In this document: piece after piece, positions 5,027-64,000 of the stretch
How positions within the stretch are numbered: position 1 is the stretch's first letter
Layout of the letters: every line of letters starts with the position of its first letter
Assembly: GCA_030646955.1 (NCBI GenBank)
Contig: JAUSKM010000028.1
Location: 1,065-65,064 of the forward strand
Reading direction: 5' to 3'
DNA length: 64,000 nt
Source: a bacterium
GTDB lineage: Bacteria > Patescibacteriota > Patescibacteriia > JACPHY01
The notes under the pieces: generated by a model
Database searches by the model: none
What the model saw: the letters and a program-made list of their open reading frames with translations, nothing else
Told to the model about the DNA's origin: nothing
Made by a program: the position numbers and the translations under genes

Positions 5027-5039
5027 CTCTTTCCCCGTC

Positions 5040-6273: not shown

Positions 6274-6369
6274 GATCCCGACCGTCCGTATGAGGTCGGG
6301 ATCCCACCCGGGTACGAGAAGCCGCGCTATTGGATCGCAAGATTCAGTACTTCTCCACCCGGGTGGGAT
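6274..6369 (+). repeat. Bipartite hairpin element, copy G: GATCCCGACC…GGTCGGGATC then ATCCCACCCGGGTACGAGAAG…CTTCTCCACCCGGGTGGGAT
   Basis: The loop is CCGCGCTATTGGATCGCAAGATTCAGTA. It lies upstream of membrane protein 6434. Confidence 0.6.
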
Positions 6370-6433
6370 TGTATAAGGAGCGTTCATTCACCATCACGCA
6401 TCTGCTAGAGCGGGTGCAAGAGAGGAGTGTGCA

Positions 6434-6790: not shown

Positions 6791-7021
6791 TCCACGTCTC
6801 CGCGCGGTGACATATGGCCTTGCGCCGTTCTTCGTCGCGCAGCGCCCGCTGCATCTGACGATGTGTCACCGGTATACTGCGATAGTCCCCACAGCCTCAC
6901 CCTTGAGGTCACCGTGGGGACTCCCTCCGTTGGATTGGAACCTCGATCCAACAGAGGGAGAAAGCTCCCATTTCACAACACGAAGGGGCAATGCCCCTTC
7001 CCTCCAGAGAGAGGAGAAGCG

Positions 7022-7933: not shown

Positions 7934-8180
7934 CGCTGCACGGTGCCGAGCCACGCGCTCGGCACCTCCCCACGCAAGATGAGTCATCATCTTCCGTGGG
8001 GAGGACAGCCTCCGATTCACAATCAACCCATTCCTTCCTCGTCATTTCGACCGAGTGCTGCTGTGCGCGAGTGGAGAAATTTCTGCATGTCGCAGTTCGT
8101 GTGATGTGTGAGATTGCTTCGTCGCGTGAGGCCGCGCTTCTCGCAATGACGGGAGGGAAAGAGAAAAGAGAGGAGATCCG

Positions 8181-9437: not shown

Positions 9438-9599
9438 CTCTTTCCGGTTCGATGCCGCGTGCGTACCAGCACGCGGCCCCACCTCTGCACTGGTTACACA
9501 ACCAGGATGGAGGTGGGAATGTACGGATAGCACCTTTAATCTGACGAGTCGGCTGCGTGGTGCAGCCGGGATTGTTTCGAAACGAAAGGAGAGGGAACG

Positions 9600-10547
9600 A
9601 TGCGAATGCGAAACGGTGTTCTCGTGGCGCTCTGCGTTGGACTGATCATGGGCTGCGCGGCGCGACAGCACTCGCTGGAGCCGGAGCTGTCCTACGCGCT
9701 GGATGCGGCACGCAACCCGCAGGAGGTGGCGTACGTCGGCAACAACCCGGAGCTCGCGATGCTGTTCGACGCGCTCGCGCGGCGGACCCCGAGTGCCTTC
9801 CGTGGCGTCAAGATGTCCAGCATCGCCGACGTCATGCAGGATTGCGACCCTGCGGATGGCACGCTCGCCTCCCACATCGCACCGACGCTCCACGGCATCG
9901 AGGTGACCGTGGAGGCAAGCTGCTTCGCGGGCAACACCTACGTGATGTCGAAGCGGTCAACGACCGTCGCGCTGACGACAGCGACCGTGCCGGATCCGGA
10001 CGTCGGACTGTCGGCGGAGGAGCTGCAGGAGCGATACCCGCGCATGGAGTACGAGAAGCTCCGGTCGCACAAACACAAGGATGCATGGTTCGCTCCGTTC
10101 GCGGGCGTGTATCACTTGCGGTATGCGCGCCCGCTCTCCGTGGTGCTCTCCGCCGAGAAGTTCGGCATCGAGACCGATTTCGTGCGCGCCGAGCAGCGGG
10201 TTGCGGTTACGTTTCGCCAGCGCTACGACATGCAGCTGGAGGGAAACGACTTCACGGAGGCGTCCGCAATCTACGCGGGCATCGTGGATGACTACGGCGA
10301 CGGCAACCACCTCGTCACTCCGTGGGAGTACGCGAAGTTCGAGGAGGACATCCTGCGTCTCGCGGCCATTCACCTCGGCCTCCTGGCAGATGCCGAAGTG
10401 CGTCGCATGCTGACGGAGCAGGGCGTGCGCGTCAACGAGGCGACGCAGTGGGTCGAGCGCGTCCGCGCGCTCCAGGAGACCTCGTTGGTAGTGCAGTTCC
10501 CCCCGCCCGACACGGACGCACCCGAAGACCTCAGCCGCTCCTTCTGA
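9600..10547 (+). CDS. hypothetical lipoprotein (315 aa, lipobox IMGC)
   Basis: AGGAGAGGGAACG lies upstream of the ATG, and a signal peptide is present. Confidence 0.6.
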   Translation: MRMRNGVLVALCVGLIMGCAARQHSLEPELSYALDAARNPQEVAYVGNNPELAMLFDALARRTPSAFRGVKMSSIADVMQDCDPADGTLASHIAPTLHGIEVTVEASCFAGNTYVMSKRSTTVALTTATVPDPDVGLSAEELQERYPRMEYEKLRSHKHKDAWFAPFAGVYHLRYARPLSVVLSAEKFGIETDFVRAEQRVAVTFRQRYDMQLEGNDFTEASAIYAGIVDDYGDGNHLVTPWEYAKFEEDILRLAAIHLGLLADAEVRRMLTEQGVRVNEATQWVERVRALQETSLVVQFPPPDTDAPEDLSRSF

Positions 10548-10683
10548 TCGTCCTTTTTTCCTTCCCCCGCCGCGTGCGTACCAGCACGCGGCCCCACCTC
10601 TGCACTGGTCATGGGACCAGGATGGAGGTGGGCAGTACCGATGTAAGTAGTACCTTCCAACGACGTTTGATGAAAGGAGGACC

Positions 10684-11262
10684 ATGAGCGATCAGGATCG
10701 TGCGAATGGTTCCGGTGGCGATGTGCGCAACGATTTCGATCAGTGGTTCTGGGACGTGTGCCTGCCGAACGCGATGGACGCAAAGCACGGCGCCGATACG
10801 GAACCGTACGATGCGGACGACACGTACTCCTGGGGTGACGATTTGTACCCCTGGGAGCAGGAGCAGGAGGACGCCGCCCAGGACGAGGCAGACACCATCT
10901 ACTACGATGAGCTGCAGGCGGACCTCGACAACATGGACGAGTGGCTGCGCGAGGAGGACGAGCGTAGGCAGCGCGACGAGGAAGATCGCAACGAATTCTT
11001 CATCTTCGCTCGGCAGCATCGCCTGCCCGCCCCGCTCCGCACCCAGTTCTTCACCTGCCTCGACGGCGAGCAGTGCGCTGGCATGAGCGGCGACGTGTAC
11101 CGGCGCAGCGCGAGGAATCGCAGCTGGGACCGCTACCAGCGGGACTGCAAGGACAAGACCCTCCGCTCCTGGAAGCGCTACCGCGAGCGGCAGTGGTGGC
11201 GATTCCCGTCGCGTGCGTGGATGCGGCACCACCCGGGCCTCGACGAGTGGCCGAACGTTTGA
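10684..11262 (+). CDS. hypothetical acidic protein with Arg/Trp-rich C-terminus (192 aa)
   Basis: AAAGGAGG lies 6 nt upstream. The D/E-rich N-terminal two thirds are followed by a basic C-terminus. Confidence 0.55.
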   Translation: MSDQDRANGSGGDVRNDFDQWFWDVCLPNAMDAKHGADTEPYDADDTYSWGDDLYPWEQEQEDAAQDEADTIYYDELQADLDNMDEWLREEDERRQRDEEDRNEFFIFARQHRLPAPLRTQFFTCLDGEQCAGMSGDVYRRSARNRSWDRYQRDCKDKTLRSWKRYRERQWWRFPSRAWMRHHPGLDEWPNV

Positions 11263-11402
11263 TGATCGTAGTTGCCGACCCTCATGGTCGGCAACTCCCC
11301 TGAGCCATCGCACAACGATGGTTCAGGGGAGGAAGTCCTCCGCGTTTTACAACCCCTGGCACTCACGTGCCAGCTTCAGAGGAAGAAAGAAAGGAGTTCC
11401 CG

Positions 11403-12269
11403 ATGCGAAGCATCATGGTGCTCACCCTGGCCGCGGCGCTGGCCGCGTGTGCTGGGACGCAGCAGGAGAGCATGACAACCGTAGACACCGGCAACAGCGG
11501 CATGACCGCGACGCAGTACGCCGTGGCCGAGATGGGACCGTCGGTCTGCTCGGTCGAGGATATCAGCGACGTGCTGACGCAGGCCCTCCGCACCGAGGAA
11601 GATGTGCGCGAGTTCCAGCGCGGGTGCGGCATCAATCCGAGCACGGGCGTGCTGGATGACGCAACGGGCTCGTGCATCCATTCCACCGCGAGCACGATCC
11701 TGCAGGCGCGTCGCGAGCTGGGCATGTGCAGCGAGACGCCGGAGCCGCACGGCTCGGCCGAGGATCTGGTCCGCGATCTCCGCGAGTCGCTCGCGCAGGT
11801 GCCGCCCCCGCTCGGACCGATGCCCAGCGTGTCGCCGCTTCCCGCGGAGCTCCGGTTCGCCGCGTGGAGCGGGTTCGCCATCGTGAGCCTCGATCACGCG
11901 CCGCCGCGGGCTGCGGCGCTCGATGCGAACGGCCCCATCACGCAGGACGCGTTTTCTCGGGGTGTGGAGCTCCAGGCCGAGCAGATTCCCGGCGGCGGGT
12001 GGTGCTTCCCGGTTCCCGGGAGCATGACCTTCCGCGCGATCTGCTCGTCCGATAACGGCGTGTGGGGTGAGGTCGCGGTTCGCGATAGCGAGTTTGCCGG
12101 GCATACGCTCAACGTGCGTGCGACCAAGTATCCGATGTCGGGCCTCATCGCGTGCAGCGGCGATATCTGCGGCAACGTCTACAGCCTTGCCACCGACGAT
12201 GTTGTCGGGTGCAGCGGCCCGCGCTGCCGCGAGCTGTTCGACCGGAACCTGCGACCCAAGTCCGAGTAG
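11403..12269 (+). CDS. secreted lipoprotein paralogue (288 aa) sharing the Cys-rich C-terminal domain with 7022..7933
   Basis: AAAGGAG RBS is present with lipobox LAAC. The C-terminus GGGWCFPVPGSMTFRAICSS…DDVVGCSGPRCRE matches the 7022 gene. Confidence 0.6.
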   Translation: MRSIMVLTLAAALAACAGTQQESMTTVDTGNSGMTATQYAVAEMGPSVCSVEDISDVLTQALRTEEDVREFQRGCGINPSTGVLDDATGSCIHSTASTILQARRELGMCSETPEPHGSAEDLVRDLRESLAQVPPPLGPMPSVSPLPAELRFAAWSGFAIVSLDHAPPRAAALDANGPITQDAFSRGVELQAEQIPGGGWCFPVPGSMTFRAICSSDNGVWGEVAVRDSEFAGHTLNVRATKYPMSGLIACSGDICGNVYSLATDDVVGCSGPRCRELFDRNLRPKSE

Positions 12270-12639: not shown

Positions 12640-12825
12640 GATTTCTGGCATCATTGAGGGGAGGGAAGCGAATAAAATTGCGAGTCGGAACTTGCAAGAG
12701 GGACGGGTAGGTGATGGCGGTTGTGGCGACCGTACGCAAGTCGGTTTCCAGAGCCAACTCTCTCCTCCTATCACCTACCCATCTCTGCAGAGAAGCCCCA
12801 TGGAGGGCTTCTCTGTTTTTTGTTT
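12640..12825 (+). ncRNA. Candidate small RNA: 11-bp stem GGGTAGGTGAT/ATCACCTACCC closes a ~55-nt loop, followed by a strong intrinsic terminator
   Basis: The terminator is CAGAGAAGCCC-catgga-GGGCTTCTCTG plus TTTTTTGTTTT at 12787-12825. No ORF is present. Confidence 0.35.
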
Positions 12826-13230
12826 TGGGTGAGATTGCTTCGGGTGCTCGCAATGACGAGAATGGTAGGAGTGCGTGAAATGGTATGAGAGCGAGCAGCG
12901 AGGATCCAGCAGCCAGCACCTCTCCTTGACGCCGCCGGCTGATGCGCAACGATGGAGGTGCGCGTACTCATGAACAGCAATTGTTATGGAACAGGAAACG
13001 TGCGGATCGTGTGATTGCGGGAAGGCCGCGGAGACGGGTGTATGCTGCGGCGCCGGATGCGGGGCGGCATGCGGGACAGGCCATGATGATGCGAAAGATT
13101 GCGCGTGCGATGCGCATGGAACAACAGAGGCAAGCAAGAGCGACGCGGCGGCGTAGACACGACAGCGTTCCCTGTGGGAGTGCTGCCTGTTGTACACGAG
13201 GACTCTTTCGGTTTTTCTGCCGGCGTTCAC

Positions 13231-13362
13231 CCCATCTGATCCCCTCCCTCTCCGCGTACACGGGGAGAGGGAGGGAGAGGTGGGGCGATATCGCACCATC
13301 GCACAGCCAAGCATAGCCACCTCTCCCCCCTCCCCCCACGAGTACGTACGGGGAGGGGGAGG
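13231..13362. repeat. Composite G/C-rich palindromic element (about 130 nt): CCCCTCCCTCTCCGCGTACACGGGGAGAGGGAGGG / core / CCCCCTCCCCCCACGAGTACGTACGGGGAGGGGGAGG
   Basis: It is nearly identical, in reverse orientation, to 34347-34480. Further module copies occur elsewhere in the window. Confidence 0.7.
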
Positions 13363-13415
13363 ATAAGAAGCGTGCTTGGCGACACAAAAGCCGAAAGAAC
13401 CTACACTAGGAGAGT

Positions 13416-14671: not shown

Positions 14672-14752
14672 ATCTGTCATTGCGAGTCCACGAAGCAATC
14701 CCGGCGGTGCCCGACGAACATCGAGATTGCTTCGAGTACTCGCAATGACATG
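14672..14752. repeat. Two copies of the ~29-nt hairpin repeat GTCATTGCGAG…CTCGCAATGAC (GTGAGATTGCTTCGAGTACTCGCAATGAC)
   Basis: One copy reads CATTGCGAGTCCACGAAGCAATC and the other GAGATTGCTTCGAGTACTCGCAATGACA. Confidence 0.6.
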
Positions 14753-15430: not shown

Positions 15431-16276
15431 ATGACCATTCGTCAGATGGAACGGAAGGCGAACGCGATTCGGCAAGATCTCGTCACGATGCTTACCGCGG
15501 CAGGATCGGGCCACTCGGCAGGCCCCCTGGGCATGGCGGATGTGTTTACCGCGTTGTACTTTTCCGTGCTCACGCACGATCCCAAGCATCCGGACGATCC
15601 GGAACGTGATCGGCTATTCCTCTCCAACGGACACATTTGTCCAATTTGGTACACGACGCTTGCGCACGCAGGATACTTGCCGCGCCGCGAGATGCTGACG
15701 ACGCTGCGCACGATGGGCAGTCGCCTGCAGGGCCACCCGCATCGCAAGGCGCTGCCGCCCATCGAGAATCCCGCCGGGCCATTGGGGCAGGGACTCTCGC
15801 AGGCCGCGGGGTACGCGTACGCTGCGCGCATCGATCATGCAAAGTTTCAAGTGTACTGCGTGCTCTCGGACGGCGAGCACGAGGAAGGGCAGACATGGGA
15901 GGCCATCATGTTTGCGGGCAAGCACCGGTTGGCAAGCATCACCGCCATCGTGGACCGCAATAATATCCAGATTGACGGGTACACAGAGGACATCATGCCG
16001 CTGGAGCCGCTGCGCGCTAAGTACGAGGCATTCAACTGGCACGTCATCGAGGTAGACGGGCACAACATGGAGGAGATCATCGACGCATGCAGCCTGGCGA
16101 AAGCAATCGTTGAGAAGCCCGTTGCGATTCTCGCGCACACGATTCCCGGCAAGGGCGTGGACTTCATGGAGTTTGATTACGTCTGGCACGGCAAGCCCCC
16201 AAACAGCACTGAAGCCCGCGACGCCCTCCACCAACTCCGCACGCTGGGCGGGAGGATTGTGGGGGAGCATGAGTAA
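15431..16276 (+). CDS. transketolase, N-terminal (TPP-binding) subunit of a split enzyme
   Basis: SGHSAGPLGMADVF matches the Tkt thiamine-diphosphate domain. The ORF stops where the C-terminal subunit ORF begins. Confidence 0.85.
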   Translation: MTIRQMERKANAIRQDLVTMLTAAGSGHSAGPLGMADVFTALYFSVLTHDPKHPDDPERDRLFLSNGHICPIWYTTLAHAGYLPRREMLTTLRTMGSRLQGHPHRKALPPIENPAGPLGQGLSQAAGYAYAARIDHAKFQVYCVLSDGEHEEGQTWEAIMFAGKHRLASITAIVDRNNIQIDGYTEDIMPLEPLRAKYEAFNWHVIEVDGHNMEEIIDACSLAKAIVEKPVAILAHTIPGKGVDFMEFDYVWHGKPPNSTEARDALHQLRTLGGRIVGEHE

Positions 16277-17396
16277 TCCTATGCTCGTCAAGTCACTCAA
16301 CCCGAAACTCTTCCAGAAGAATGTCGCGATGATCCCCACCCGCAATGGGTATGGGGAGGGATTGGTGGAAGCGGGGAAGCGGGATGGCAATGTGGTGGTG
16401 CTGTGTTGCGATCTGACAGAGTCCACGCGGTCGCAAGCGTTTGCGGAGCAGTTCCCGGAGCGGTTTGTGCAGGTGGGGGTGGCGGAGCAGAACATGGCGG
16501 GGCTTGCCGCGGGTATGGCGGCGTATGGGAAGGTGCCGTTCACGTCGAGCTATGCGGTGTTCTCGCCGGGGCGCAATTGGGATCAGACGCGCGTGGCGAT
16601 TGCGTATGGGGAGGCGAACGTGAAGATCGCGGGCGCGCACGCGGGCATCTCCGTGGGGCCGGACGGTGCGACGCACCAGGCATTGGAGGACCTGGCAATC
16701 ATGCGCGTGCTTCCGGGGATGGTGGTGCTTGCGCCGTGCGATGCGATCGAGGCAAAGAAAGCAGTGATCGCCGCTGCGGAGCATCGCGGGCCGGTGTACT
16801 TGCGGTTCACGCGCGAGAAGACGCCGATCATCACCACGCCGCGTGCGCCGTTTTCCATTGGGCGCGCGCAGGTGCTGCGCAAGGGGACGGATGCAACCAT
16901 CATCGCGGCGGGGCCGCTGGTGTTTGAAGCGTTGCTGGCCGCGGAGGCGTTGGCGGGGAACCGCACCGCGCTCGCGCGTATTGTGGAGCGCTACCCCGCG
17001 CTCTCCAAGCGTGTGAAGACATCCGCGCTCCACGGGCACTCCATGCAGCGCGCCAAGCAGGCGGTGCGATGGACGCCCGCGAGTATCCGCGATCTCCTGG
17101 CGCATGCGGGGCGCATGGACATTGAGGTCATCAATTGCCCGTCCATCAAGCCGCTGGACCACGGTGCCATCGTGGCAAGCGCCAAAAAGACCGGCCGCGT
17201 CATCACGGTGGAGGAGCACCAGATCACCGGCGGCCTCTTTGGCGCCATCGCAGAGCTTTTGGCGCGCCATCATCCCGTGCCTATCACCCCCATCGGCATG
17301 CCAAACTCCTTTGGCGAGAGCGGCGAACCGATGGAGCTTTTGGAGAAGTACGGCATGACCGCACCGCACGTCATCGCAGCGCTCATTCAGCAGTAA
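16269..17396 (+). CDS. transketolase, C-terminal (pyrimidine-binding and C-terminal domain) subunit
   Basis: The ATG overlaps the upstream stop (ATGAGTAA). The product has the Tkt central and C-terminal domains. Confidence 0.85.
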   Translation: MSNPMLVKSLNPKLFQKNVAMIPTRNGYGEGLVEAGKRDGNVVVLCCDLTESTRSQAFAEQFPERFVQVGVAEQNMAGLAAGMAAYGKVPFTSSYAVFSPGRNWDQTRVAIAYGEANVKIAGAHAGISVGPDGATHQALEDLAIMRVLPGMVVLAPCDAIEAKKAVIAAAEHRGPVYLRFTREKTPIITTPRAPFSIGRAQVLRKGTDATIIAAGPLVFEALLAAEALAGNRTALARIVERYPALSKRVKTSALHGHSMQRAKQAVRWTPASIRDLLAHAGRMDIEVINCPSIKPLDHGAIVASAKKTGRVITVEEHQITGGLFGAIAELLARHHPVPITPIGMPNSFGESGEPMELLEKYGMTAPHVIAALIQQ

Positions 17397-22962: not shown

Positions 22963-23200
22963 GGCACGTTCTCTGATTCTCCCCCCTCTCCTTGTACCCA
23001 AGGGGAGGGGGGATTGAGGGGGGAGGGGAGGTCTGACGTATGACCAGTGGGGTCAGCGGTACACGTGCCGGTGTTGCATGGTTGCGCGTACCCCATTTGA
23101 TAGCACTGTTTTCGGTCCCGCTCCATGCGCACCTCTCCCCCTCCCACTCCCCCTCTCCCCGCAGACGCGGAGAGGGGGAGGGTCAGAGACAAAAAGAAAC
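22963..23200. repeat. Partial copies of the G/C palindromic modules (CCCCCCTCTCCTTGTACCCAAGGGGAGGGGGG…; CCTCTCCCCGCAGACGCGGAGAGGG)
   Basis: These match the right and left modules of composites 13231-13362 and 34347-34480. ORF 23040..23261 is an artefact of the repeat. Confidence 0.6.
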
Positions 23201-34332: not shown

Positions 34333-34346
34333 GCACATGTTCCTGG

Positions 34347-34480
34347 CCTCCCCCTCCCCGCTGTACCCAAGGGGGAGGGGGAGAGGTGGCTATGCATGGC
34401 TGTGCGATGGTGCGATTTCGCCCCACCCCTCCCTCCCCCCGAGGACGCGGGGAGGGAGGGGATGAGATGGGGTTATAACC
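34347..34480. repeat. Composite G/C-rich palindromic element (about 130 nt), inverted copy of 13231-13362
   Basis: The reverse complement aligns base for base with 13231-13362 apart from a few indels. It sits between the ABC ATPase and permease genes. Confidence 0.7.
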
Positions 34481-41365: not shown

Positions 41366-43855
41366 TTATCGTTGCCGTGCATCTGCTTCTTCTTCATTCT
41401 CATCTTCCCATGCCGTATCGTCCTCATCAACTCCGTCCTCATCCGCGCCATCCACATCCTCTTCCTGCGTATCTTCCGCAGCATCTTCATCTTCTTCATG
41501 GGCATCCTCTTCTTCCTCCGCGTCCTCCTCATTTGCACTGCCCCTCACGTCGCCCGATGGGCTTTGCGGGGCAAACGCGGCCACCCGTTCCGATCCCCCA
41601 CGTCGCCCATCGGGCTCTGCGGGGCGGGTGTGGGTATCCGCTTGTTCCCCAAACACCTCTCGCGGTTTTGCACCATCAGCGGGGCCGATGAATCCTTGTT
41701 CCTCCAAGATATCCAGGATGCGGGCGGCGCGTGCATAGCCCACCTTGAGCCGGCGTTGGAGCAGTGATGCCGATGCTTTGCCGGCTTGCAGAATCACGTC
41801 CTTCGCGTCGGCTAGCAAATCATCCTCCGCCTCGTCCCCGCCGCCGTTCTTGAACGCGACGATCGGTTTCTCGGTCACCTCATCATCGTACTCCGCGTTG
41901 CCGCCCCGCTCTTGGAGACACTCGACGATGCGCTGGATTTCCTGATCGGAGACAAAGCAGCCCTGGAGACGCTTGGGTTTGGAGAGCTCCGCAGACGTGA
42001 AGAGCATGTCGCCACGGCCGAGGAGCCGTTCTGCACCCACGCCATCCAAGATTGTTCGCGAGTCTATGGAGGATGCCACGGCGAACGCGATGCGTGCGGT
42101 GATGTTCGCCTTGATGAGGCCAGTAATCACGTCCACGCTGGGGCGCTGCGTTGCCACGATGAGATGGATGCCCACCGCGCGCGCCATCTGCGCAAGCCGG
42201 ATGATCGCCGCCTCCACGTCGTTTGCGGCAACGGCCATGAGATCCGCCAGCTCATCAATGATGATGACGAGGTACGGGAGACGATCCTCCTCGCGGCACG
42301 CTTTGTTGTACGAGGCGAGATCGCGCTTGCGCTTGCTCGCCAGCAGCTCAAACCGGCGATCCATTTCCGCCAGCGCCCACTTGAGCGCGTGGACGGTCTT
42401 CTTCACGTCCGTGATGACCGGCGTCAGGAGGTGCGGGATGCCGTTGTAGATGGGGAACTCTACGCGCTTGGGGTCCACCAGGATGAAGCGGAGGTCATCC
42501 GGGCCGTTGCGGTAGAGAAGGGAGACGATAATCGCGTTGAGCATGACGGACTTTCCGCTGCCGGTGGCGCCAGCAACCAGGAGGTGCGGCATGCGCGCGA
42601 TGTCCGTGGCCCATGCGTGGCCGGCAACGTCCTTGCCCAGCGCGATGGGGAGCGCCAGCGATGGCTTGGTGAATTCGTCGGACTGGAGGATCTCGCGGAG
42701 CCGTACAATCGCCGCCTTCTGGTTTGGCACTTCGATACCCACCAGCGATTTGCCGGGGACCGGCGCCTCGATGCGGATGGGGTGCGCGGCCAGCGCCAGC
42801 GCGAGGTCATTCGCCAGTGCGGTGATGCGCGAGAGCTTCACGCCGTCCGCCGGGCGCAGCGTGAACTGCGTCACCGTGGGGCCCACGCGCACGTCGCCCA
42901 TCTCCACGTCAATGCGGAAATTCTTGAGCGTCTTCTGGATGATGGCCTGGGCCGCTTTGATGTCGCCGCTGGTTGGTTTGCCAACTTCACCAGAGAGCAG
43001 GTCCAGCGGGAGTTCCACGCGTGGCCGGCGGACGCGCTTGCGTGCGCGCACCGCGTTGGCGATGGCATCGTGCTTGCTCGAGGATGCGGCATCCTCGTCC
43101 TGTGCATCGGCATTTGCCTCCTCTGCTCCTTCCTCGTCCGTCTCGCCGTCATTATTTGATGTTGCTTCTGCTTCTTTTTCCGCAAGCTCGCGCTCCGCGA
43201 ACTCGGCATTGGCTGTATCATCGGCACTACTCTGCGACCGCTCTCGCGCGGTGCGCGCTGCACCGGTGATGGTGCGCCACGCGCGTCGAACGTGCTCGAG
43301 AGAAAGATGGAAGCCCAAGAAGACGCCGATGATGACGATGGCGGTGAGGAGGACGGCGGTGGCGATGGGGCCAAAGAGCTCCGCGAGCGGGGAGGAGAGC
43401 ACCAGGCCCAGGTACCCGCCGGAGACGGGGCCGCCCTTCAGGTGGAGGAGGCCGGTGAGCGCGACACCCAGGAGAAGGAATCCCAAAAGTTGGAGCGCCC
43501 CGAAGCGCGGGCGTGATGCTTCCTCGCGCACCAGCATGGCCGCCACAATAAGGAGCACGAGCGGCACGAGGAACGCGGCGGAACCAAACAGCGCGCGCAG
43601 CCCGCCCGCAATCGCCGCACCCGCATTCCCCGCGATACCGGCAAACGCGAGCGCGCCGATGATGCCAGCCGTAAAGAGTGCCACCACGACAATGCCGTGG
43701 AGGGTTTCCGGTGAGAGCGTTGGGATAGGATCGCGCTCCACCTCTTCATCTTGTTGTCCCCGCCGCGCACCCGTTCGTTTTCTCGTCGGTTTCTTCCGCG
43801 CCATACCAATGTGCATGGTGTCATTGCGAGTATTCGAAGCAATCTCGCGTCTCAA
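41366..43855 (-). CDS. ftsK: DNA translocase FtsK/SpoIIIE with a highly acidic C-terminal tail
   Basis: The product has 4 N-terminal TM helices, an ATPase domain (VATQRPSVDVITG), a gamma winged-helix, then about 70 aa of D/E-rich tail. Confidence 0.9.
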   Translation of the reverse strand: MRREIASNTRNDTMHIGMARKKPTRKRTGARRGQQDEEVERDPIPTLSPETLHGIVVVALFTAGIIGALAFAGIAGNAGAAIAGGLRALFGSAAFLVPLVLLIVAAMLVREEASRPRFGALQLLGFLLLGVALTGLLHLKGGPVSGGYLGLVLSSPLAELFGPIATAVLLTAIVIIGVFLGFHLSLEHVRRAWRTITGAARTARERSQSSADDTANAEFAERELAEKEAEATSNNDGETDEEGAEEANADAQDEDAASSSKHDAIANAVRARKRVRRPRVELPLDLLSGEVGKPTSGDIKAAQAIIQKTLKNFRIDVEMGDVRVGPTVTQFTLRPADGVKLSRITALANDLALALAAHPIRIEAPVPGKSLVGIEVPNQKAAIVRLREILQSDEFTKPSLALPIALGKDVAGHAWATDIARMPHLLVAGATGSGKSVMLNAIIVSLLYRNGPDDLRFILVDPKRVEFPIYNGIPHLLTPVITDVKKTVHALKWALAEMDRRFELLASKRKRDLASYNKACREEDRLPYLVIIIDELADLMAVAANDVEAAIIRLAQMARAVGIHLIVATQRPSVDVITGLIKANITARIAFAVASSIDSRTILDGVGAERLLGRGDMLFTSAELSKPKRLQGCFVSDQEIQRIVECLQERGGNAEYDDEVTEKPIVAFKNGGGDEAEDDLLADAKDVILQAGKASASLLQRRLKVGYARAARILDILEEQGFIGPADGAKPREVFGEQADTHTRPAEPDGRRGGSERVAAFAPQSPSGDVRGSANEEDAEEEEDAHEEDEDAAEDTQEEDVDGADEDGVDEDDTAWEDENEEEADARQR

Positions 43856-44015
43856 ATCATTGTACCAATTTTGTGCTCAACGCTCCACGGGTATCCGATG
43901 GTGTTCAAAATACTGCGTCATTGCGAGCCCGCGTCTGTGCGGGCGTGGCAATCTCGTCACTTGATCGTGCGGGATTGCCACGTCGTTCGCGGACGCACTT
44001 CTCGCAATGACGCGC
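43815..44015. repeat. Cluster of three GTCATTGCGAG…CTCGCAATGAC hairpin repeats
   Basis: Copies lie at about 43819-43850, 43915-43955 and 43990-44012, followed by hairpin ACAGCCCCCGACC…GGTCGGGGGCTGT. Confidence 0.6.
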
Positions 44016-44076
44016 AGAAAATACAAGAGTACAGCCCCCGACCGTGTGGTCGGGGGCTGTTGCAATTCGTTTGCTG

Positions 44077-47688: not shown

Positions 47689-48087
47689 TGGGATCTCCTT
47701 TTTTCGAACAGACCCCCCGATGCAGGAGCGGGAAACTCGTGCAGCGAGGGGTGTGTTCGGAACAGTGTCGTTGATGGTGATCGTTACTCGCCCCCAGCAA
47801 GGAAAACGCCGGAGAGGAGAATCATGGTGCCAAGGAGAATCATATTTTTTTTGTTTGTCATTCCGAGGTCTGCCGAGGGATCTCACACGATGCAACAACG
47901 GAGGAGCTTTTGCTCAGTGTTGAAGTGTGTGGGATTTCTCGTTGCGCTCAAATGACATGAGTATTCATGATGAAATGTTCTGTTTGTATTTTGCCTCCCA
48001 CGCGGCCCAAATTCCCGTGACAAGCGTGGATTTCAGGGCGTGTGGGAGGCCGGCGTCGGTGTTCTGACGCCGGGCTATGCCGCTCTA

Positions 48088-49859: not shown

Positions 49860-50280
49860 CTTCTTCCGTCATTGCGAGGTGTCCGCATCCGCCGGAGGCG
49901 GAAGTCCGCGACGTGGCAATCTCATTTGTGCAGGAGTTGCTTCCGGTGAGATTGCTTCGAGTACTCGCAATGACGGACCTTGGGGTGAGATGTCTGTTGT
50001 TCCGCCCGAATATCCCTTCCTTGTTGGAATGATCAGGGCACAACTGCCCGAGTACGGAGAGATGAAGTGGAATGGGTGCCCAACGTGGGGCTTGTAAAAT
50101 CCACCCAGCTCTCCGTGCTTGGATTGTTGTGCGGCGTGTTCGTGGCGGGGTTGGCGTTTTGTGGGGCGTGTGAGATTGCTTCGCGTACTCGCAATGACGG
50201 GCGGGGGGAGAAATGACGAGGGAAGGGGGATGGTGTGGTTTGCGTGAGATTGTTTCGTCGCGCTCGCAATGACGGGCGTG
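49860..50280. repeat. Cluster of four GTCATTGCGAG…CTCGCAATGAC hairpin repeats in a 1.5-kb non-coding region
   Basis: Copies lie at about 49869-49925, 49947-49975, 50169-50200 and 50243-50275. Confidence 0.6.
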
Positions 50281-50739: not shown

Positions 50740-50900
50740 TGGGGCGTCATTGCGAGACCGAGTCGGCTCTGCATCACAAATATTGTCATTTCGACCAAGC
50801 AAGTCCTCGAGCGTAGGGAGAAATCTCACACGGTTCATGGAGCGTAGTGGTTATCGTTGTTTCGTGTGAGATCTCTCGCTTCGTTCGAGATGACACGAGG
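50740..50900. repeat. Two to three further copies or variants of the hairpin repeat (GTCATTGCGAGACCGAG…; GTCATTTCGACC…GAAATCTCAC; GTGTGAGATCTCTCGCTTCGTTCGAGATGACAC)
   Basis: These flank the AT-rich island together with the 49860-50280 cluster. Confidence 0.55.
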
Positions 50901-58516: not shown

Positions 58517-58639
58517 CCATCTTACAGGGGGGTGGCGTGTATTTCTAGTCCCTCCACTCCCGCCGGGAGGGGAGGTTAGGAGGGGTGGGCGGTGCGCGAG
58601 CGGGTATCTCTATGCCAAAAGCTTCTCCATCAACCCCCC

Positions 58640-59669: not shown

Positions 59670-60794
59670 ATGCTCTCCATTATCATTCCCGTCTTCAACG
59701 AGGCGCAATCGCTCCGGCATCTCCATGACGAGTTGCACTGGGCATGCGCGTATCTTCCTGTTCCCCTCCCTCCCCGCGTCCTCGGGGAGAGGGAGGGGAA
59801 GGGAGGGGGGGGTGGCATGGTGGCGCAGGACGAAGGCCACCTCTCCCCCCTGTATCCCCCCTCCCCCCGGGGACGCGGGGAGGGGGGAGAAAATTTTTTT
59901 GAATTCATCTACGTCGACGATGGTTCATCGGATGCATCGTGGGAAGTCATACGGGAACTGGCGGCGCGCGACCCGCGCGTGGTCGCGGTGCGATTGCGGC
60001 GTAACTGCGGGAAGGCGACGGCATACGCGGCCGGCCTGGCCCATGCTTGTGGCGAGATGATCGCGACGATCGATGCAGACCTCCAGGATGATCCGGCAGA
60101 ATTAGGGAAGCTACTTGCGCGCGTGTCTCCCCCTCCTGCTTGGAGGGGGAGACAAAGAGGGGGTGGAGCGGATGGAGGGGGGGGAAAGAGGGCGGACATG
60201 GTTGTCGGGTACAAGGAGTACCGGCAGGACGTATCTGTCAAAATTTTCTCCTCGCGTCTCTTCAATGCTGCACTCCGTGCGGTTGCCGGCACAACACTGC
60301 GTGATCATAACTCCGGTTTCCGCGTGATGACGCGCGAGGTTGCGGATGAGCTGCCACTCCGCGGAGATCTCCACCGTGTCCTCCCCGCGATTGCTGCGAT
60401 GCACGGGTACCGCGTTGCAGAGGTTGCGGTGGTGCACCGCGCGCGGCGTTTTGGCGCGTCCAAGTACGGCCGCACCGGCCTCTCGCGTGCGTTCCGCGGT
60501 CTTTTTGATCTCCTGACCATCGCGTTTCTCTACCGCTTCCGCGCCCGGCCACTCCACTTTTTTGGCGCGTTTGGCCTCGCGCTCCTGGCTCTTGGGGGTG
60601 GCATCAACGCGTACCTGACGATCGTGTGGCTCGGCGGCGCCTCCATCGGCACACGTCCGCTGCTTCTCCTGGGCGTGCTCCTGGTAGTGCTTGGGGTACA
60701 ATTTATTTCGACGGGCTTCCTTGCAGATCTCGTGGTGCTGCGCAGAGCGCAGGAGGAGCAGCTTCCTATTCGTGAGGTGGTGCGCGGCGTATGA
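59670..60794 (+). CDS. GT2-family polyprenol-phosphate glycosyltransferase (GtrB/ArnC/DPM1-like) carrying two in-frame G/C palindromic-element insertions
   Basis: GT2 motifs SIIIPVFNE…YVDDGSSD…IDADLQDDP and 2 C-terminal TM helices are present. Insertions lie at 59757-59890 (45 aa, PVPLPPRVLGEREGKGGGGG…SPRGRGEGGE) and 60121-60190. Confidence 0.8.
   Translation: MLSIIIPVFNEAQSLRHLHDELHWACAYLPVPLPPRVLGEREGKGGGGGMVAQDEGHLSPLYPPSPRGRGEGGENFFEFIYVDDGSSDASWEVIRELAARDPRVVAVRLRRNCGKATAYAAGLAHACGEMIATIDADLQDDPAELGKLLARVSPPPAWRGRQRGGGADGGGGKRADMVVGYKEYRQDVSVKIFSSRLFNAALRAVAGTTLRDHNSGFRVMTREVADELPLRGDLHRVLPAIAAMHGYRVAEVAVVHRARRFGASKYGRTGLSRAFRGLFDLLTIAFLYRFRARPLHFFGAFGLALLALGGGINAYLTIVWLGGASIGTRPLLLLGVLLVVLGVQFISTGFLADLVVLRRAQEEQLPIREVVRGV
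59757..59890. repeat. Composite G/C palindromic element (135 nt) inserted in frame inside the GT2 gene
   Basis: Its left module CCCCTCCCTCCCCGCGTCCTCGGGGAGAGGGAGGGG is nearly identical to 34347-34480. The insertion is a multiple of 3 nt and the reading frame is preserved. Confidence 0.7.
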
Positions 60795-61102
60795 TGGGCG
60801 CAATCGGCCGGTACATGGCAAGCTGGGATGCCTGGACGTGGTTTGGGTTCCTGGCGCAGGCATTCTTCTTTGGGCGGTTTGTCGTGCAATGGTGGGCGAC
60901 AGAAAAACACCGCCGGGTGGTGATCCCCGCGGCATTCTGGTGGCTCTCGCTCGTGGGCGGGACGCTCATCTTTGTGTATGCGTTGGTGCGGCGCGACCCC
61001 GTGTTCGTCGTGGGCTCTGCGCTCGCTCTGGTCATCTATGCGCGCAATGTATACTTCCACTACGGCGTGGCGCGTTCCCAGAGCGACCAGCCGTCCACAT
61101 GA
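60791..61102 (+). CDS. small 3-TM membrane protein, lipid-A-disaccharide synthase N-terminal (LAB_N)-like, coupled to the GT2 gene
   Basis: An ATGA overlap joins it to the GT2 stop. FGRFVVQWW is typical of LAB_N proteins that accompany ArnC-like GT2 enzymes. Confidence 0.55.
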   Translation: MMGAIGRYMASWDAWTWFGFLAQAFFFGRFVVQWWATEKHRRVVIPAAFWWLSLVGGTLIFVYALVRRDPVFVVGSALALVIYARNVYFHYGVARSQSDQPST

Positions 61103-62718
61103 CGCGGCGTACCGACCCGCGCGCGGAGATCCTCCGGGATCTCCGTTTCTGTTTTCGTGAGGAGCCAACTGCGTTCTTTGAGAACCAGTTTTTCGTGTGT
61201 GCGTTCAACGTCCAGCAACCCGTCCGAGATGCGCACGTCCGGCAATGCAGCGCGAAGCGTAAAGTACGCCGCGGGTTGCGTCTGCCATGCAAATCCGTAC
61301 GTGACCAACCCGTTGGCGCGGCCTTCGCGTAGCACCGCGATGATGCGCGGGAATGATGATGGAGGATACTCGCGGCGCAGGGTGTGGAACGTTTGCACGC
61401 TCGCAAGGCCCACGGTGGCGAGAAGGAGTAGGATGATAAGCCGCCGCACTCGCGTCGCACGTTGCACAATGCACGTGAGGCCTGCAATGAGCATGGCGGT
61501 TGCGGGGAAGAGGGGAAGGAGGTACCACGCGAATTTCGTCTGCGCGAACGAGTAGCCGATGAAAACGGTGAGCCACCAGATCGCCAGCAAATCCACAGTG
61601 GGCCACCGCAGCAGCTCCTCAAAGCGATCCATCGCGCGGTGCGTTTGCGGAACGTGCCGTCGCAGCAACGCGAGGAGCGGTGCAATGGGGCTGTGGCGGA
61701 CGATGAACCACTGAACATTGCGCACCATCGTCATCGCGCCGATGCCGATGAGCACCGCGAGCATCCACCAGGCGTACGGCCCCGCAGTATGTGCAAACGC
61801 GCCGATGTACCACAGCGGCCCCGCGCCCTCGTTGTGGAGCTGCGTCGTCACGCGGTGCACGACGTGCCATCCCATGTACTCCTCCCAGAAGATGCCGCCG
61901 TGCAGCAAGGTCATTGCGAGGTGCCAGGGGAGGGTGATGATAAGGAACACGGAACATGGAACAAGGAACTGCCGGAAAGAGATGCGGATCATTTTTCGAT
62001 ACAAGAACCAGTGGAGCGCGATGATGGGAAGTGGCAGCAGACCCGCGGCGGATTTGGTCATCACGGCAAGTCCCATCGCAACGCCGAAAATGGCGAGCCA
62101 AAAAGAGACACCCATCCCCCCAGAGCGGGGATGGTGGACGATTATTGTCTGATCCTCCCCCTCTCCGCGTCCGCGGGGGGAGGGGGAGCGAGAGGGGGAG
62201 GGGTGGCATGTGGTTTTCCACCACGCAAAGAGTGCCAGCAGTACAAAGAACGTCAGCATCCCATCCATCTCCCCAGTTCGGAACGCATGTTCGTGCACCG
62301 CGGGGAAGGTGGCCATGATGGCTCCCGCGAGGAACGCCGCCAGCCGTGAGCGACGCCACTCCCACGTCCACCATGCCGTGAGCAGCACGACGCCGATGCC
62401 CGCAAGCGCGGATGGCAGCCGGAGTGCCCACACGATTCCCTTCCATCCCTCCCCCTCCCCGCGTCCGCGGGGGGAGGGGTGGAATGCCATGAGTGTGCTC
62501 GTCACCCAAATCTTGAGCGGCGGTTTTCGGAAATACGGCGCGTTCGTATAGGAAGGCGCCAGGAAATTGCCCCGCTCCACCATCTCCAAGCTCACTTCGC
62601 CATGTATCGCTTCGTCAAAATTGACATACGGCCGCGCGTCCAACCGCCAGAGCATCACAAACCCCGCCAGCGCGAAAAGCGCCAGGAACCAACCGTGCGC
62701 GCGAATGATGTGATACAT
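61060..62718 (-). CDS. GT39/ArnT-like (PMT family) membrane glycosyltransferase with two in-frame palindromic-element insertions
   Basis: N-terminal FDEAIHGE (DE motif) and multiple TM helices are present. Insertions at 62150-62225 and 62440-62490 encode PSPRGRGEGEG-type peptides. Confidence 0.75.
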   Translation of the reverse strand: MYHIIRAHGWFLALFALAGFVMLWRLDARPYVNFDEAIHGEVSLEMVERGNFLAPSYTNAPYFRKPPLKIWVTSTLMAFHPSPRGRGEGEGWKGIVWALRLPSALAGIGVVLLTAWWTWEWRRSRLAAFLAGAIMATFPAVHEHAFRTGEMDGMLTFFVLLALFAWWKTTCHPSPSRSPSPRGRGEGEDQTIIVHHPRSGGMGVSFWLAIFGVAMGLAVMTKSAAGLLPLPIIALHWFLYRKMIRISFRQFLVPCSVFLIITLPWHLAMTLLHGGIFWEEYMGWHVVHRVTTQLHNEGAGPLWYIGAFAHTAGPYAWWMLAVLIGIGAMTMVRNVQWFIVRHSPIAPLLALLRRHVPQTHRAMDRFEELLRWPTVDLLAIWWLTVFIGYSFAQTKFAWYLLPLFPATAMLIAGLTCIVQRATRVRRLIILLLLATVGLASVQTFHTLRREYPPSSFPRIIAVLREGRANGLVTYGFAWQTQPAAYFTLRAALPDVRISDGLLDVERTHEKLVLKERSWLLTKTETEIPEDLRARVGTPRHVDGWSLWERATP

Positions 62719-62811
62719 ACCACTCTATCGTAGCAGGTGGGGCAGAGACTTGACGGGAGGCGGGATTCTTGATGGAGTGAATATGGCGCACGGTGCGCAG
62801 GAGGAGGACGC

Positions 62812-63045
62812 ATGGGTGATGCGACAGGAGCAGAGCTCGTGGAGGCGGCGAAGCCGCTCGATGAGGAGCGGGCGCGGCGATTCATCGCGGCGGCATGGCG
62901 GTACATCGATGGAGGTGGCACCCCCCAGGATATCCGAAAGCTGCACAATGCGATCGCGGCAGCGCAGAACGGAACGCTGGTGCTTCCGGACAGGGTAGTT
63001 CCGGAGGATATCCGGCGCTTCCTCGGCCACTGGCCCACGCGGTAG
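62812..63045 (+). CDS. hypothetical protein (77 aa)
   Basis: GGAGGAGG RBS lies 6 nt upstream. Confidence 0.45.
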   Translation: MGDATGAELVEAAKPLDEERARRFIAAAWRYIDGGGTPQDIRKLHNAIAAAQNGTLVLPDRVVPEDIRRFLGHWPTR

Positions 63046-63264
63046 CGCCCCACAACAAACCCACCCGGGAACACCGGGTGGGTTTCTCTATGGGCGTGCG
63101 TAGCAGCATCTTTTGTCAAAGGAAAGAGGGTCAAGTCCAATCATAATTCAACCGAATCGCGATCCGGCTGTGCCTAAGAGGTTGGCACGTGATCAAAGAA
63201 TTGGACTTGACCCCATTTCTGACCCATAGTGTTATGTGATGTCTCATTTTGGCGGTCTTTAGTG

Positions 63265-63666
63265 TTAGACAAACTTCTCGATAAATTCTTTAAGATACGG
63301 TGCAGCATCCAGTTGCAAAAATTCATCTTTCGTAACCCAAGCATGCTCGGAGTGTTCAGAACTTACCGTAACAGCACCAGATAAGGCGGCGCACTTATAG
63401 CCGATGAAAATAATATAATCATCTTTTTCTTGATTGTAGGCGGTTTGAATATCAAGAGGAACGATGTTTTCAATATCCAGCCCCGCTTCCTCTCTGACCT
63501 CTCTTTTGAGGGAAGCATTGTGGAGCTCGGGAAATTCAAGTGCGCCGCCGGGTAAATCCCACTTAAGCCCCTTATATGTCGCTTTTAAGACAAGGAATTT
63601 TTCCTCTTTGTTGAGTATGACTGCTTTTTGGTGAAGATGAATTTTTGCCATAGAAGTTAAAGCCAA
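63265..63666 (-). CDS. NUDIX hydrolase (133 aa) in a low-GC region
   Basis: The Nudix box is GGALEFPELHNASLKREVREEAGL. Gene GC is about 40%, against about 65% elsewhere. Confidence 0.7.
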   Translation of the reverse strand: MALTSMAKIHLHQKAVILNKEEKFLVLKATYKGLKWDLPGGALEFPELHNASLKREVREEAGLDIENIVPLDIQTAYNQEKDDYIIFIGYKCAALSGAVTVSSEHSEHAWVTKDEFLQLDAAPYLKEFIEKFV

Positions 63667-63837
63667 GATGAGATTTCACATAACGTTTGCGCATATGCAA
63701 AGTTGGCTGGCAGTATAATATAGCGCGGAGCGCTCTACTGCTAGCCAATTTGGGTGAGCGACTGTAAGGAGCGAGCTGCATATGCGCTGTTGTACGATGT
63801 GTGGCTAAATTTCCTATAAATAATCATGAAAAGCCGC

Positions 63838-64000
63838 ATTAGTAATCGCTTATTAGGATTCCGTTTAAATGATCAATTTCTTGCTGGAGAATGGCGGCCC
63901 GAGGACCAATTATGACTTCTTCACGATCATTGCCCTCAATGTTTTGATATTGAACTTTGGTCCAAAAATAACGCTTTAGGAAGTGACGCCCATTCAAACT
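63838..64000 (-). CDS. 3' fragment of a peptide deformylase-like gene (C-terminal …EGNDREEVIIGPRAAILQQEIDHLNGILISDY*), truncated by the window end
   Basis: The C-terminus aligns with PDF motif III (I-x-Q-H-E-x-D-H-L-x-G-x-L-x-x-D-Y), but the first His is Gln (QQEIDH). The gene is low in GC. Confidence 0.35.

Follow-up and report, generated by a model that had tools for sequence, protein, structure and literature searches.

Selfish in-frame palindromes are best known from Rickettsia. In yeast mitochondria, GC clusters and byps are GC-rich mobile palindromes which invade protein-coding genes, the byps being skipped by the ribosome with no need for a frame to be kept. As for the bacteria of the candidate phyla radiation (CPR), whose tiny genomes are considered poor in mobile elements, no report of in-frame palindromic repeats in them was found in the searchable literature. 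According to the account of Ogata et al. 2000 and 2002 given in PMC10969869, the palindromes of Rickettsia (RPEs) are found between genes and also, in frame, inside unrelated conserved genes. Intragenic REPs of the GTAG/CGTC type have been reported in several species, with different REPs lying near the same recB site in Xanthomonas (PMC3733652). The original prediction made for the locus described here, that in-frame palindromes were not known from a high-GC genome, is contradicted by these intragenic REPs (PMC3733652), Xanthomonas being high in GC; in-frame MITEs are also covered by a review (PMC10969869).

The analysed DNA, a stretch of 64 kb referred to below as the window, belongs, to judge from its sequence, to a MAG of the Uhrbacteria lineage (Patescibacteria/CPR), and its RpoB shares 83-84% identity with sequences from Ca. 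Uhrbacteria. Searched with an nhmmer profile of the modules themselves, the window was found to contain exactly 11 hairpin modules of one family (E 3e-14 to 2e-5), of which six are intergenic and form three composite elements, while the other five are inside a GT2 gene and a PMT/ArnT-like gene. The intergenic copies, and one weaker candidate, are the following:

13233-13370, no strand assigned: intergenic composite upstream of rpiB, 130 nt, with stops in two of the six frames
22974-23187, no strand assigned: intergenic composite with a long spacer, downstream of the pfkB kinase gene
34340-34468, no strand assigned: intergenic composite between the genes for an ABC ATPase and a MacB-type permease
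58543-58585, plus strand: downstream of rpoC, weak candidate for a hairpin or a degenerate module (hairpin CCTCCACTCCCGCCGGGAGGGGAGG; nhmmer E 0.86)

The genes flanking the intergenic copies were called by GC3 and backed by Pfam. The composite at 34340-34468 corresponds to the 13233 copy in reverse complement, its central part being 93% complementary to 13269-13335, and the lengths of the three composites (130, 131 and 221 nt) are not divisible by three. Hairpins resembling the one at 58543-58585 also come after rpoC in L007.

The basic unit measures about 45-60 nt and is made of a polypyrimidine (poly-C/T) arm (CCCCTCCCTCCCC), a loop of 4-12 nt, the complementary polypurine (poly-G/A) arm and a tail of sequence GAGAGGTGG. 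In a hairpin scan, all 11 modules had arms measuring 11-14 nt, with one mismatch or none; pairing was judged for each copy by self-complementarity, the 17-module alignment changing register between subfamilies. The GC content of the elements is 66-75%. Composites consist of two inverted units flanking a spacer, about 130 nt in all, and can be folded into a single long hairpin; the window holds four such inverted doublets, in composites of 130-221 nt, plus three single or partial units. The 14-mer CCCTCCCCGCGTCC, searched with up to two mismatches, has 7 matches in the window vs. 1.5 expected, and 7 was obtained in none of 100 shuffles. An Rfam scan of the window matched one tRNA and no family for the repeats, a search of viral contigs for the repeat gave zero matches, and among the GTDB representative genomes a 22-base pattern of the element matched in Dyella and Rhodanobacter only.

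The genic copies are found in the following region:

59670-60794, plus strand: GT2 gene, 374 aa (PF00535, E 2e-23; NCBI MDO8425495.1), host of two inserts
59755-59894, no strand assigned: GT2 site 1, composite of two inverted modules with a 19-nt spacer, in frame, residues 28-76
60124-60190, plus strand: GT2 site 2, one TCTCCCCCTCC-type module having a G-rich tail, in frame, about residues 152-176
60791-61102, plus strand: gene for a small LAB_N (GtrA/ArnE-like) membrane protein (PF07578, E 4e-29; MDO8425496.1), without insert, between the two host genes
61060-62718, minus strand: PMT/ArnT-like GT-C glycosyltransferase gene, 552 aa (PF02366), host of two inserts
62112-62211, no strand assigned: ArnT-like site 2, a small hairpin (62112-62134) and a full module (62148-62211), about residues 172-203
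62441-62495, no strand assigned: ArnT-like site 1, single module, about residues 80-93 (nhmmer E 3e-10)

The sequences and coordinates given in the original prediction were all recovered, exactly or within a few bases. At GT2 site 1, the two modules match the profile with E 3e-14 and 2e-13, and the inverted arms of 56 nt (59761-59816 and 59836-59891) are 79% complementary, with one hairpin of -112 kcal/mol (z -7) predicted for the composite. GT2 site 2 has a perfect 13-nt hairpin (E 2e-5), and ArnT-like site 2 has an E of 3e-14. That the same modules lie between genes, as had been claimed, holds at the nucleotide level: the in-gene sequence is, for instance, identical at 39 of 42 positions to the copy at 34415-34466, and ArnT-like site 2 at 47 of 52 to the copy at 23130-23186. 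Copies inside genes were seen in either orientation and in each of the three phases (0, 1 and 2). No stop is found in any of the six frames of the GT2 composite, and the intergenic composites have stops in their spacers only. The arms are stop-free in any frame on either strand because one lacks A/G and the other lacks T, and this inability to encode a stop provides a simple sequence reason for their tolerance in genes. Five of the 11 modules sit within 3 kb of one glycosylation operon, and the GT2 inserts contain the only two G8 runs of the 64 kb; each of these observations could indicate a selected role over passive tolerance.

Compared with the RPEs as outlined in PMC10969869, the window elements are alike in being a multi-copy palindrome of about 100-150 nt, both intergenic and in frame within genes, with functional hosts, predicted surface loops and a bacterium of small genome; in-frame insertion with the host ORF preserved was found at four sites in two genes. 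They differ, within that same account, by their occurrence in Uhrbacteria/CPR and by their 66-75% GC, RPEs being AT-rich, so that host lineage and GC set them apart from the RPE-1 to RPE-10 families of Rickettsia. Also, in contrast to RPEs, none of the six frames of their polypyrimidine/polypurine arms contains a stop, the elements do not encode one conserved peptide but are read in more than one frame, and the same loops have gained them repeatedly. Concerning REPs, BIMEs and REPINs, these are likewise short GC-rich imperfect palindromes, often in inverted doublets which form a larger hairpin (PMC3733652; PMC3116915; PMC2817692), as are the 11 modules and four doublets of the window, and both are located between co-directional genes, including within operons, the REPs with a minority in frame inside genes. 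The genic fraction is, however, high in the window (5/11) and no RAYT was seen there. Instead of the GTAG/CGTC end tag (PMC3733652), the modules have ends such as TCTGAT or TTTC, GTAG being absent and CGTC present only in the loop of the window subfamily. Like MITEs, the elements (221 nt at most) have terminal inverted repeats, the 56-nt arms of GT2 site 1, and cannot encode a transposase; MITEs are non-autonomous and some have open frames which give translational fusions on landing in a gene (ERIC/RU, PMC2759123; Coxiella QMITE, PMC5896051; PMC10969869). The single modules of 45-60 nt are nevertheless shorter than typical MITEs, and no parent IS was identified in the window. A further resemblance to the yeast GC clusters and byps is that related modules occur on low-GC contigs too, with GC down to 0.29, but the elements described here, unlike byps, always keep the frame.

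The segments are, on the evidence of the orthologue alignments, insertions. At all four insert sites, the orthologues (45-80% identity) contain a short linker or some other repeat; among 18 GT2 orthologues the two sites are filled in some and empty in others, and the ArnT-like sites vary likewise. The GT2 linkers measure 50 and 24 residues here vs. 6 and 5 in many orthologues, the linker of ArnT-like site 1 has 18 residues vs. 6 in 10 of 13 orthologues, and that of ArnT-like site 2 has 38 vs. 13 in the sister orthologue P0122. In the closest insert-free relative (L010), both GT2 sites and ArnT-like site 1 are empty, and ArnT-like site 2 has a 13-residue linker. The GT2 site 1 element is absent from L010 and L006, and the GT2 site 2 module from L002, L003 and L010. 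The alignment proposed with the original prediction thus gave the expected outcome, and the outcome that would have spoken for native linkers, all orthologues sharing segments devoid of DNA similarity to the intergenic repeats, was not obtained on either count. Insert boundaries are blurred, filled and empty sites being too diverged for the junctions, and with them any target-site duplication, to be defined; the claim that the inserts are multiples of three consequently holds as regards the frame, which is preserved at all four sites, and not as regards lengths, which are not definable to the base.

Once linker lengths are placed on neighbour-joining trees, GT2 site 1 requires about 4-5 gains, GT2 site 2 no fewer than 4 and ArnT-like site 1 no fewer than 2. 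The copies at GT2 site 1 and at both ArnT-like sites are closer to copies of the same genome (39/42, 47/52) than to the modules at the orthologous sites in L002, L003 and L006. Sequence comparison thereby shows, as far as it reaches, that copy dynamics act on the DNA level with no conserved peptide, and that in related genomes the same permissive loops apparently received inserts more than once, in some cases from different repeat families. Repeated gain need not explain all of the patchy distribution, part of which could go back to old insertions that were later lost. Similarity among the copies of a genome could stem from gene conversion and not from fresh insertion.

As regards the host proteins, GT2 is a polyprenyl-phosphate glycosyltransferase of the ArnC/GtrB/DPMS type, with ArnC, GtrB and DPMS as best Foldseek matches (E 2e-20 to 1e-14), a GT-A domain, a DXD motif and C-terminal membrane helices; D84, D135 and D137 are invariant among its orthologues. 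The PMT/ArnT-like protein, 100% identical to NCBI MDO8425497.1, has a PMT domain, an Asp-Glu pair in the first loop (D35 and E36, both invariant) and a multi-helix membrane core. Outside the inserts, dN/dS is 0.07-0.17 among insert-bearing orthologues. By their reading frame, intact catalytic residues and purifying selection, the host genes are to all appearances still functional. The full 374-aa GT2 product is deposited at NCBI, the start being truncated only in the Logan gene call, where the caller placed it at an ATG within the element, just 3' of the G-rich arm.

In AlphaFold models the inserts are predicted to be in loops, as coils between secondary-structure elements, in agreement with the loop location first suggested: the models are confident outside the inserts, and the inserts are low-confidence coils. 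For GT2 (pLDDT 86), the inserts fall between helix 12-27 and strand 77-83, and between helix 142-151 and strand 177-182; residues 28-76 (site 1) are coil with pLDDT 45-54, and residues 152-176 (site 2) are coil with a mean pLDDT of ~50-77, below 50 at residues 165-169 only. For the PMT/ArnT-like protein (pLDDT 86.7, pTM 0.89, N-terminus all-helical), residues 80-89 of site 1 form a low-confidence coil, the block of residues 81-90 having pLDDT 61 and lying between helices 68-79 and 90-122, and residues 172-203 of site 2 a low-confidence coil with pLDDT 48-59.

The behaviour of the repeat appears to extend past the window, to orthologues of related genomes and to other gene families on metagenome contigs. 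Matches to the related module pattern number 87, spread over 84 metagenome contigs, counted irrespective of taxonomy, with contig GC contents of 29 to 69%. At least 16 (16-17) matches are in frame inside Pfam-verified genes, namely those for CysS, PriA, PheT, IleRS, a Mur ligase, MnmA, an RmlD-like enzyme, GT4, GT2, VKOR and a radical-SAM/GNAT protein. Thirty-two of the 87 matches correspond to a separate, longer repeat (~150 nt, on contigs of ~55-58% GC) and were left out of the in-gene fraction because none was verified in a gene.

The reading preferred here, with a probability of roughly 0.8, is that the segments belong to one family of short, non-autonomous palindromic repeats, REP/REPIN-, RPE- or MITE-like, in a genome of the Uhrbacteria lineage. 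The RPE-like character originally put forward is supported by insertion, frame retention, loop placement and intergenic homologues. A copy landing in coding DNA and adding a multiple of three bases would leave the gene open and add a peptide rich in Pro/Ser/Leu and then Gly/Glu/Arg; copies would be retained only at positions where the protein can accommodate a floppy loop. In GT2 such positions would be the loops that precede strands beta2 and beta5, and in the GT-C enzyme two loops between membrane helices. The inserts are probably translated and would be near-neutral passengers, and their spread may be due to recombination among the copies or to an enzyme which works on the hairpin in trans.

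Spread and similarity through homologous recombination or gene conversion between hairpins, or through template switching, with no dedicated transposase, is the alternative that fares best, even if it is rather unlikely. It fits with the greater likeness of within-genome copies than of orthologous-site copies, with the lack of any transposase or RAYT among the ~50 window ORFs scanned against Pfam, with the presence of RecA in the window, and with the CGTC-type REPs reported without a dedicated transposase (PMC3733652). Gene conversion is nevertheless unable to seed the first copy at a new site, and the modules occupy many unrelated genes.

Co-option of the elements in the operon, either as G8 contingency loci which switch surface glycosylation by slipped strands or as mRNA structures which tune expression, seems improbable. 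In other bacteria, poly-G tracts commonly drive the phase variation of glycosyltransferases. The only G/C runs of at least 7 in the 64 kb are two G8 tracts (59805-59812 and 60177-60184), both in GT2 inserts, vs. 8.4 such runs expected from shuffles; runs of 7-8 are mostly inside inserts in those related loci that were examined, too, and the clustering of five modules in the 3-kb glycosylation locus points the same way. The tract lengths are, however, equal in both independent assemblies, and similar modules are found in essential genes (aaRS, PriA, Mur ligase), in which switching off would be lethal.

That the inserts remain untranslated, through excision from the mRNA or ribosomal bypass, is very improbable. 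The GC-rich byp elements of yeast mitochondria and the T4 gene 60 hop are analogues, and the GT2 composite hairpin (-112 kcal/mol) is very stable. The frame is, on the other hand, open through the element in all genic copies of the window and in the 16-17 metagenome copies, intergenic copies not being multiples of three, and no match to an intron-like or other Rfam family was obtained. Frame retention and the absence of stops argue against bypass or excision because either process would make both needless.

Disruption of the genes (pseudogenes), or assembly chimeras formed at repeats, is hardly credible: short GC-rich repeats can mislead assemblers, and the start of GT2 in the Logan call lies inside the element, but an independent Logan assembly (run SRR13727527, contig L001) has the insert sequences identical base for base, and against it also stand the intact frame at all four sites, the dN/dS values, the invariant catalytic motifs, the confident models outside the inserts and the NCBI annotation of the full-length GT2. 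Finally, native low-complexity linkers rich in Pro/Gly/Arg/Glu with only coincidental likeness to intergenic DNA are the least plausible reading: low-complexity loops are indeed common in membrane glycosyltransferases and several orthologues have long linkers at the same positions, but the segments are missing from many orthologues including the nearest relative, match intergenic copies at the DNA level (nhmmer E 1e-10 to 1e-14, identities of 39/42 to 47/52), and derive from one module read in differing frames and orientations across genes.

With the non-autonomous palindromic repeat as the preferred reading, the family is new and in a new lineage, the principle being already known from in-frame MITEs, from RPEs and from the REPs inside genes of high-GC Xanthomonas. 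Essential genes with related modules are found on metagenome contigs which differ widely in GC. Inserts of this kind can mislead gene callers and inflate the apparent divergence of proteins, and they create long hairpins and poly-G tracts within mRNAs. A bolder and only tentative proposal, possible rather than likely, is that stop-free hairpin modules are still-active mobile palindromes, possibly widespread in CPR, which remodel the same loops of core enzymes repeatedly (aaRS, PriA, Mur ligases, glycosyltransferases) and which here, by supplying the only long poly-G tracts of the window, could also act as phase-variation switches. If true, they would be a general source of lineage-specific protein insertions in reduced genomes.

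As a whole, the window has a GC content of about 62%, and its RpoB, 100% identical to a protein of an NCBI MAG, shares 83-84% identity with Candidatus Uhrbacteria sequences, which places the host among the high-GC Patescibacteria (candidate phyla radiation). The rpoB and rpoC genes lie directly upstream of a three-gene locus, a neighbourhood shared by relatives, whose products (a GT2 glycosyltransferase, a small LAB_N protein and an ArnT-like enzyme; NCBI MDO8425495-497) have the look of a module for surface glycosylation via a lipid carrier. Modelled with AlphaFold, GT2 resembles ArnC, GtrB and DPMS, which are polyprenyl-phosphate glycosyltransferases. A profile built from the G/C-rich hairpin modules recovered exactly 11 of them in the 64 kb (E-values from 3e-14 to 2e-5), five in the GT2 and ArnT-like genes and six in intergenic DNA, the latter paired as three composites of two inverted modules and a spacer each.

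Host genes and repeat modules in the window.
59670-60794, + strand: GT2 glycosyltransferase, 374 aa, PF00535
59755-59894: composite in GT2
60124-60190: single module in GT2
60791-61102, + strand: small LAB_N membrane protein
61060-62718, - strand: PMT/ArnT-like GT-C glycosyltransferase, 552 aa, PF02366
62148-62211: single module in the ArnT-like gene, preceded by a small hairpin (62112-62134)
62441-62495: single module in the ArnT-like gene
13233-13370: intergenic composite
22974-23187: intergenic composite
34340-34468: intergenic composite

In the alignment, each module consists of TCTGAT, a C/T-rich arm, a loop (often GCGTCC), a G/A-rich arm and (GAG...)GAGAGGTGGC. The 14-mer CCCTCCCCGCGTCC, with up to two mismatches allowed, occurs seven times vs. 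1.5 expected, and the hairpin scan showed, for every copy, arms 11-14 nt long and no more than one mismatch. The GT2 composite can fold as one 140-nt hairpin (-112 kcal/mol, z = -7), and a predicted peptide encoded by one of the inserts is, for example, GGGGGMVAQDEGHLSPLYPPSPR. The intergenic composites neighbour genes with Pfam support, namely rpiB, a pfkB kinase and an ABC ATPase adjoining a MacB permease. No Rfam family matched the repeats. An independent Logan assembly (contig L001, run SRR13727527) is identical to the window across the inserts, and the insert structures are therefore not assembly artefacts; over 2.4 kb, the sole difference is a patch at 60582-60608 (L001 1095-1121) with six mismatches and a compensating pair of 1-base indels, changing ALLALGGG to AFLIIGVS in a GT2 membrane helix. 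The presence of palindromic modules in both glycosyltransferase genes, as put forward in the original prediction, is thus borne out by the profile, the hairpins and the second assembly.

Comparison with orthologues shows these segments to be insertions. Across 18 aligned GT2 orthologues, the linkers at sites 1 and 2 have a baseline of 6 and 5 residues, respectively, vs. 50 and 24 in the window, and DNA alignments revealed empty GT2 sites in two related loci, L010 (the closest relative without insert) and L006. As for the ArnT-like protein, the site 1 linker has 6 residues in 10 of the 13 orthologues vs. 18 in the window, and that of site 2 has 13 in the sister orthologue vs. 38. Neighbour-joining trees, from which the linker columns were left out, imply a single filling of GT2 site 1 in the common ancestor of the window and the orthologous proteins P0002 and P0003, plus independent fillings in three or more other branches; at site 2, the window lineage gained its insert only after it had split from P0002/P0003, and three other branches gained theirs separately. 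At least two gains are implied for ArnT-like site 1. In some lineages, quite different repeats were found in these loops: L007 has an ACGAATC/GATTCG family (10370-10480 and 7600-7660) that also includes an intergenic copy after rpoC, and AT-rich repeats encoding 'EFLISNSKF / IPNKSQISKF'-type peptides occupy ArnT-like site 2 in P0127, P0130 and P0131. Several families of elements can thus be accommodated there. The short or empty linkers in relatives support the reading of the segments as insertions akin to the Rickettsia palindromic elements (RPEs).

At the DNA level, other copies in the same genome are the best matches for the window's modules at GT2 site 1 and the two ArnT-like sites (e.g. 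39/42 to 34415-34466 and 47/52 to 23130-23186), ahead of those found at the corresponding positions in L002, L003 or L006. This is the outcome of fresh insertion or of homogenisation among copies, not of peptide conservation. The genic composite is stop-free in all six frames. Concerning the intergenic composites (130, 131 and 221 nt), stops are confined to the spacers and none of the three lengths is a multiple of three; the module arms are unable to encode stops. Across genomes, the module turns up in every reading phase (0, 1 and 2) and in either orientation.

Both host genes are probably still functional, as sequence and models suggest: dN/dS outside the inserts is 0.07-0.17 (window, L002, L003 and L010), and the DXD aspartates of GT2 are invariant, as is the Asp-Glu pair of the GT-C enzyme. 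The placement of the inserts in loops, also predicted originally, agrees with AlphaFold runs on both proteins, in which the insert stretches are poorly modelled coils. In GT2 (mean pLDDT 86, pTM 0.83), these are residues 28-76, between helix 12-27 and strand 77-83, and 152-176, between helix 142-151 and strand 177-182, so that both sites are helix-to-strand loops in the model. By analogy with the known Rossmann-like GT-A fold, they would lie on the sheet edge opposite the nucleotide-sugar site. In the ArnT-like protein (pLDDT 86.7, pTM 0.89), the coils (80-89 and 172-203) lie between membrane helices.

A pattern conserved among orthologous loci (TCTCCCCCTCY-N3-8-RGAGGGGGAG-N2-4-AGAGGGGG) had 87 matches, spread over 84 JGI metagenome contigs whose GC contents range from 0.29 to 0.69. 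Of these, 32 represent a conserved repeat of its own, about 150 nt long (...GGGTGTCCCCCTGAGCTTCTTTTCTTCTCCCCCTCTTAGGCCTAAGAGGGGGAGCTAGAGGGGGTGTTCGCCTG...), mostly on contigs of about 55-58% GC and with further C/G hairpins upstream (L011, L012, L019, L024, L025, L027, L028, L030, L031, L034 and about 20 more loci), which looks like a multi-copy element. Among the other 55, at least 16-17 are in frame inside ORFs with Pfam domains flanking or spanning them, a lower bound since many contigs are short. Their hosts are CysS, PriA (three contigs), PheT (two), IleRS (C-terminal tail), a Mur ligase (two), MnmA, an RmlD-like reductase, a GT4, GT2 (two), VKOR, a radical-SAM/GNAT protein and a weak PHP hit. 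Separately, intergenic pairs of C-arm and G-arm hairpins about 130 nt apart were seen in two Gammaproteobacteria, Dyella psychrodurans (L004 860-1040) and Rhodanobacter sp. (L005 1455-1615), with CCCCTCACCCC/GGTGAGGGG tails, the architecture of the window's composite and an exact 22-base match to a window hairpin; this likeness could reflect convergence or a wider family.

The best-supported reading is that of a non-autonomous palindromic repeat family whose base composition would leave reading frames unharmed, copies in coding DNA persisting only if the frame is kept and the location is a permissive loop. No transposase was detected in the approximately 50 window ORFs scanned, and the GTAG tag of RAYT type is absent from the module alignments. 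Junctions are blurred where filled and empty sites are aligned at the DNA level, and gene conversion between copies may contribute. Less probably, the modules would have been co-opted in the glycosylation operon, where 5 of the 11 cluster. The window has only two G or C homopolymer runs of at least 7 (shuffles expect about 8), both of them G8 tracts that lie within the GT2 inserts (59805-59812 and 60177-60184), a pattern that would suit slipped-strand switching of a surface-glycosylation gene. Inserted elements also contain most of the runs of 7-8 in those related loci that were examined (L003 1825-1859, L006 6041-6057, L009 4355-4361). However, the G8 tracts have equal lengths in both assemblies, and essential genes carry similar modules.

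Several other features of the window were recorded. A second, unrelated palindromic family (GTGAGATTGCTTCG...CTCGCAATGAC) has at least 10 copies, nearly all intergenic on the gene map and several directly upstream of genes; none was seen within coding sequence on that map, the copy at 43819-43847 overlapping the first codons of an ftsK-like ORF.

Copies of the second palindromic family.
2864-2903
8106-8168
12815-12860
14675-14750
43819-43847
43967-44029
47921-47960
49932-49975
50156-50201
50858-50897

Seven consecutive sizeable ORFs (192-418 aa) at 1534-12269 gave no Pfam hit; this region shows internal paralogy (7616-7885 with 11961-12233; 9454-9517 with 10569-10632) and conserved hairpins 3' of several ORFs (7944, 11273, 12300). 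Three copies of a 69-nt repeat that contains a hairpin (125-193, 697-765, 1165-1233) lie around tRNA-Ala (597-672) and small ORFs. GC falls to 0.54 at 62001-64000, and ORF 63265-63666 (- strand, 133 aa) may be a recent acquisition given its GC3 of 0.40 vs. 0.65-0.9 in its neighbours. In the transketolase C-terminal half (16110-17396), PF02780 is matched in two stretches; the pyrimidine-binding domain is followed by a gap of some 95 residues, which may be another lineage-specific insertion.

The window family behaves like RPEs (reviewed in PMC10969869), intragenic REPs and in-frame MITEs (PMC2759123, PMC5896051), and may belong to the MITEs, whose terminal inverted repeats it has. It does not belong to the RPE families, since lineage and base composition differ, and stands outside the GTAG/CGTC-tagged REP super-families, since the module end lacks the tag. 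Intragenic REPs are known in several species, and in Xanthomonas recB different REPs occupy about the same site (PMC3733652); the proposal that such elements had no precedent in high-GC genomes was too strong. The searchable literature, whose coverage is incomplete, contained no account of elements of this sort from Patescibacteria. The repeat family is new and so is the lineage, whereas the kind of behaviour is already known; the repeated hits on the same loops and the presence in core genes across metagenomes add interest. Concerning annotation, the GT2 start codon chosen in the Logan gene call is an ATG within the composite, directly after the G-rich arm (L001 330; window 59817), which removes the conserved N-terminal strand, and the NCBI record has the full product; composite-type elements can mislead the prediction of start codons.
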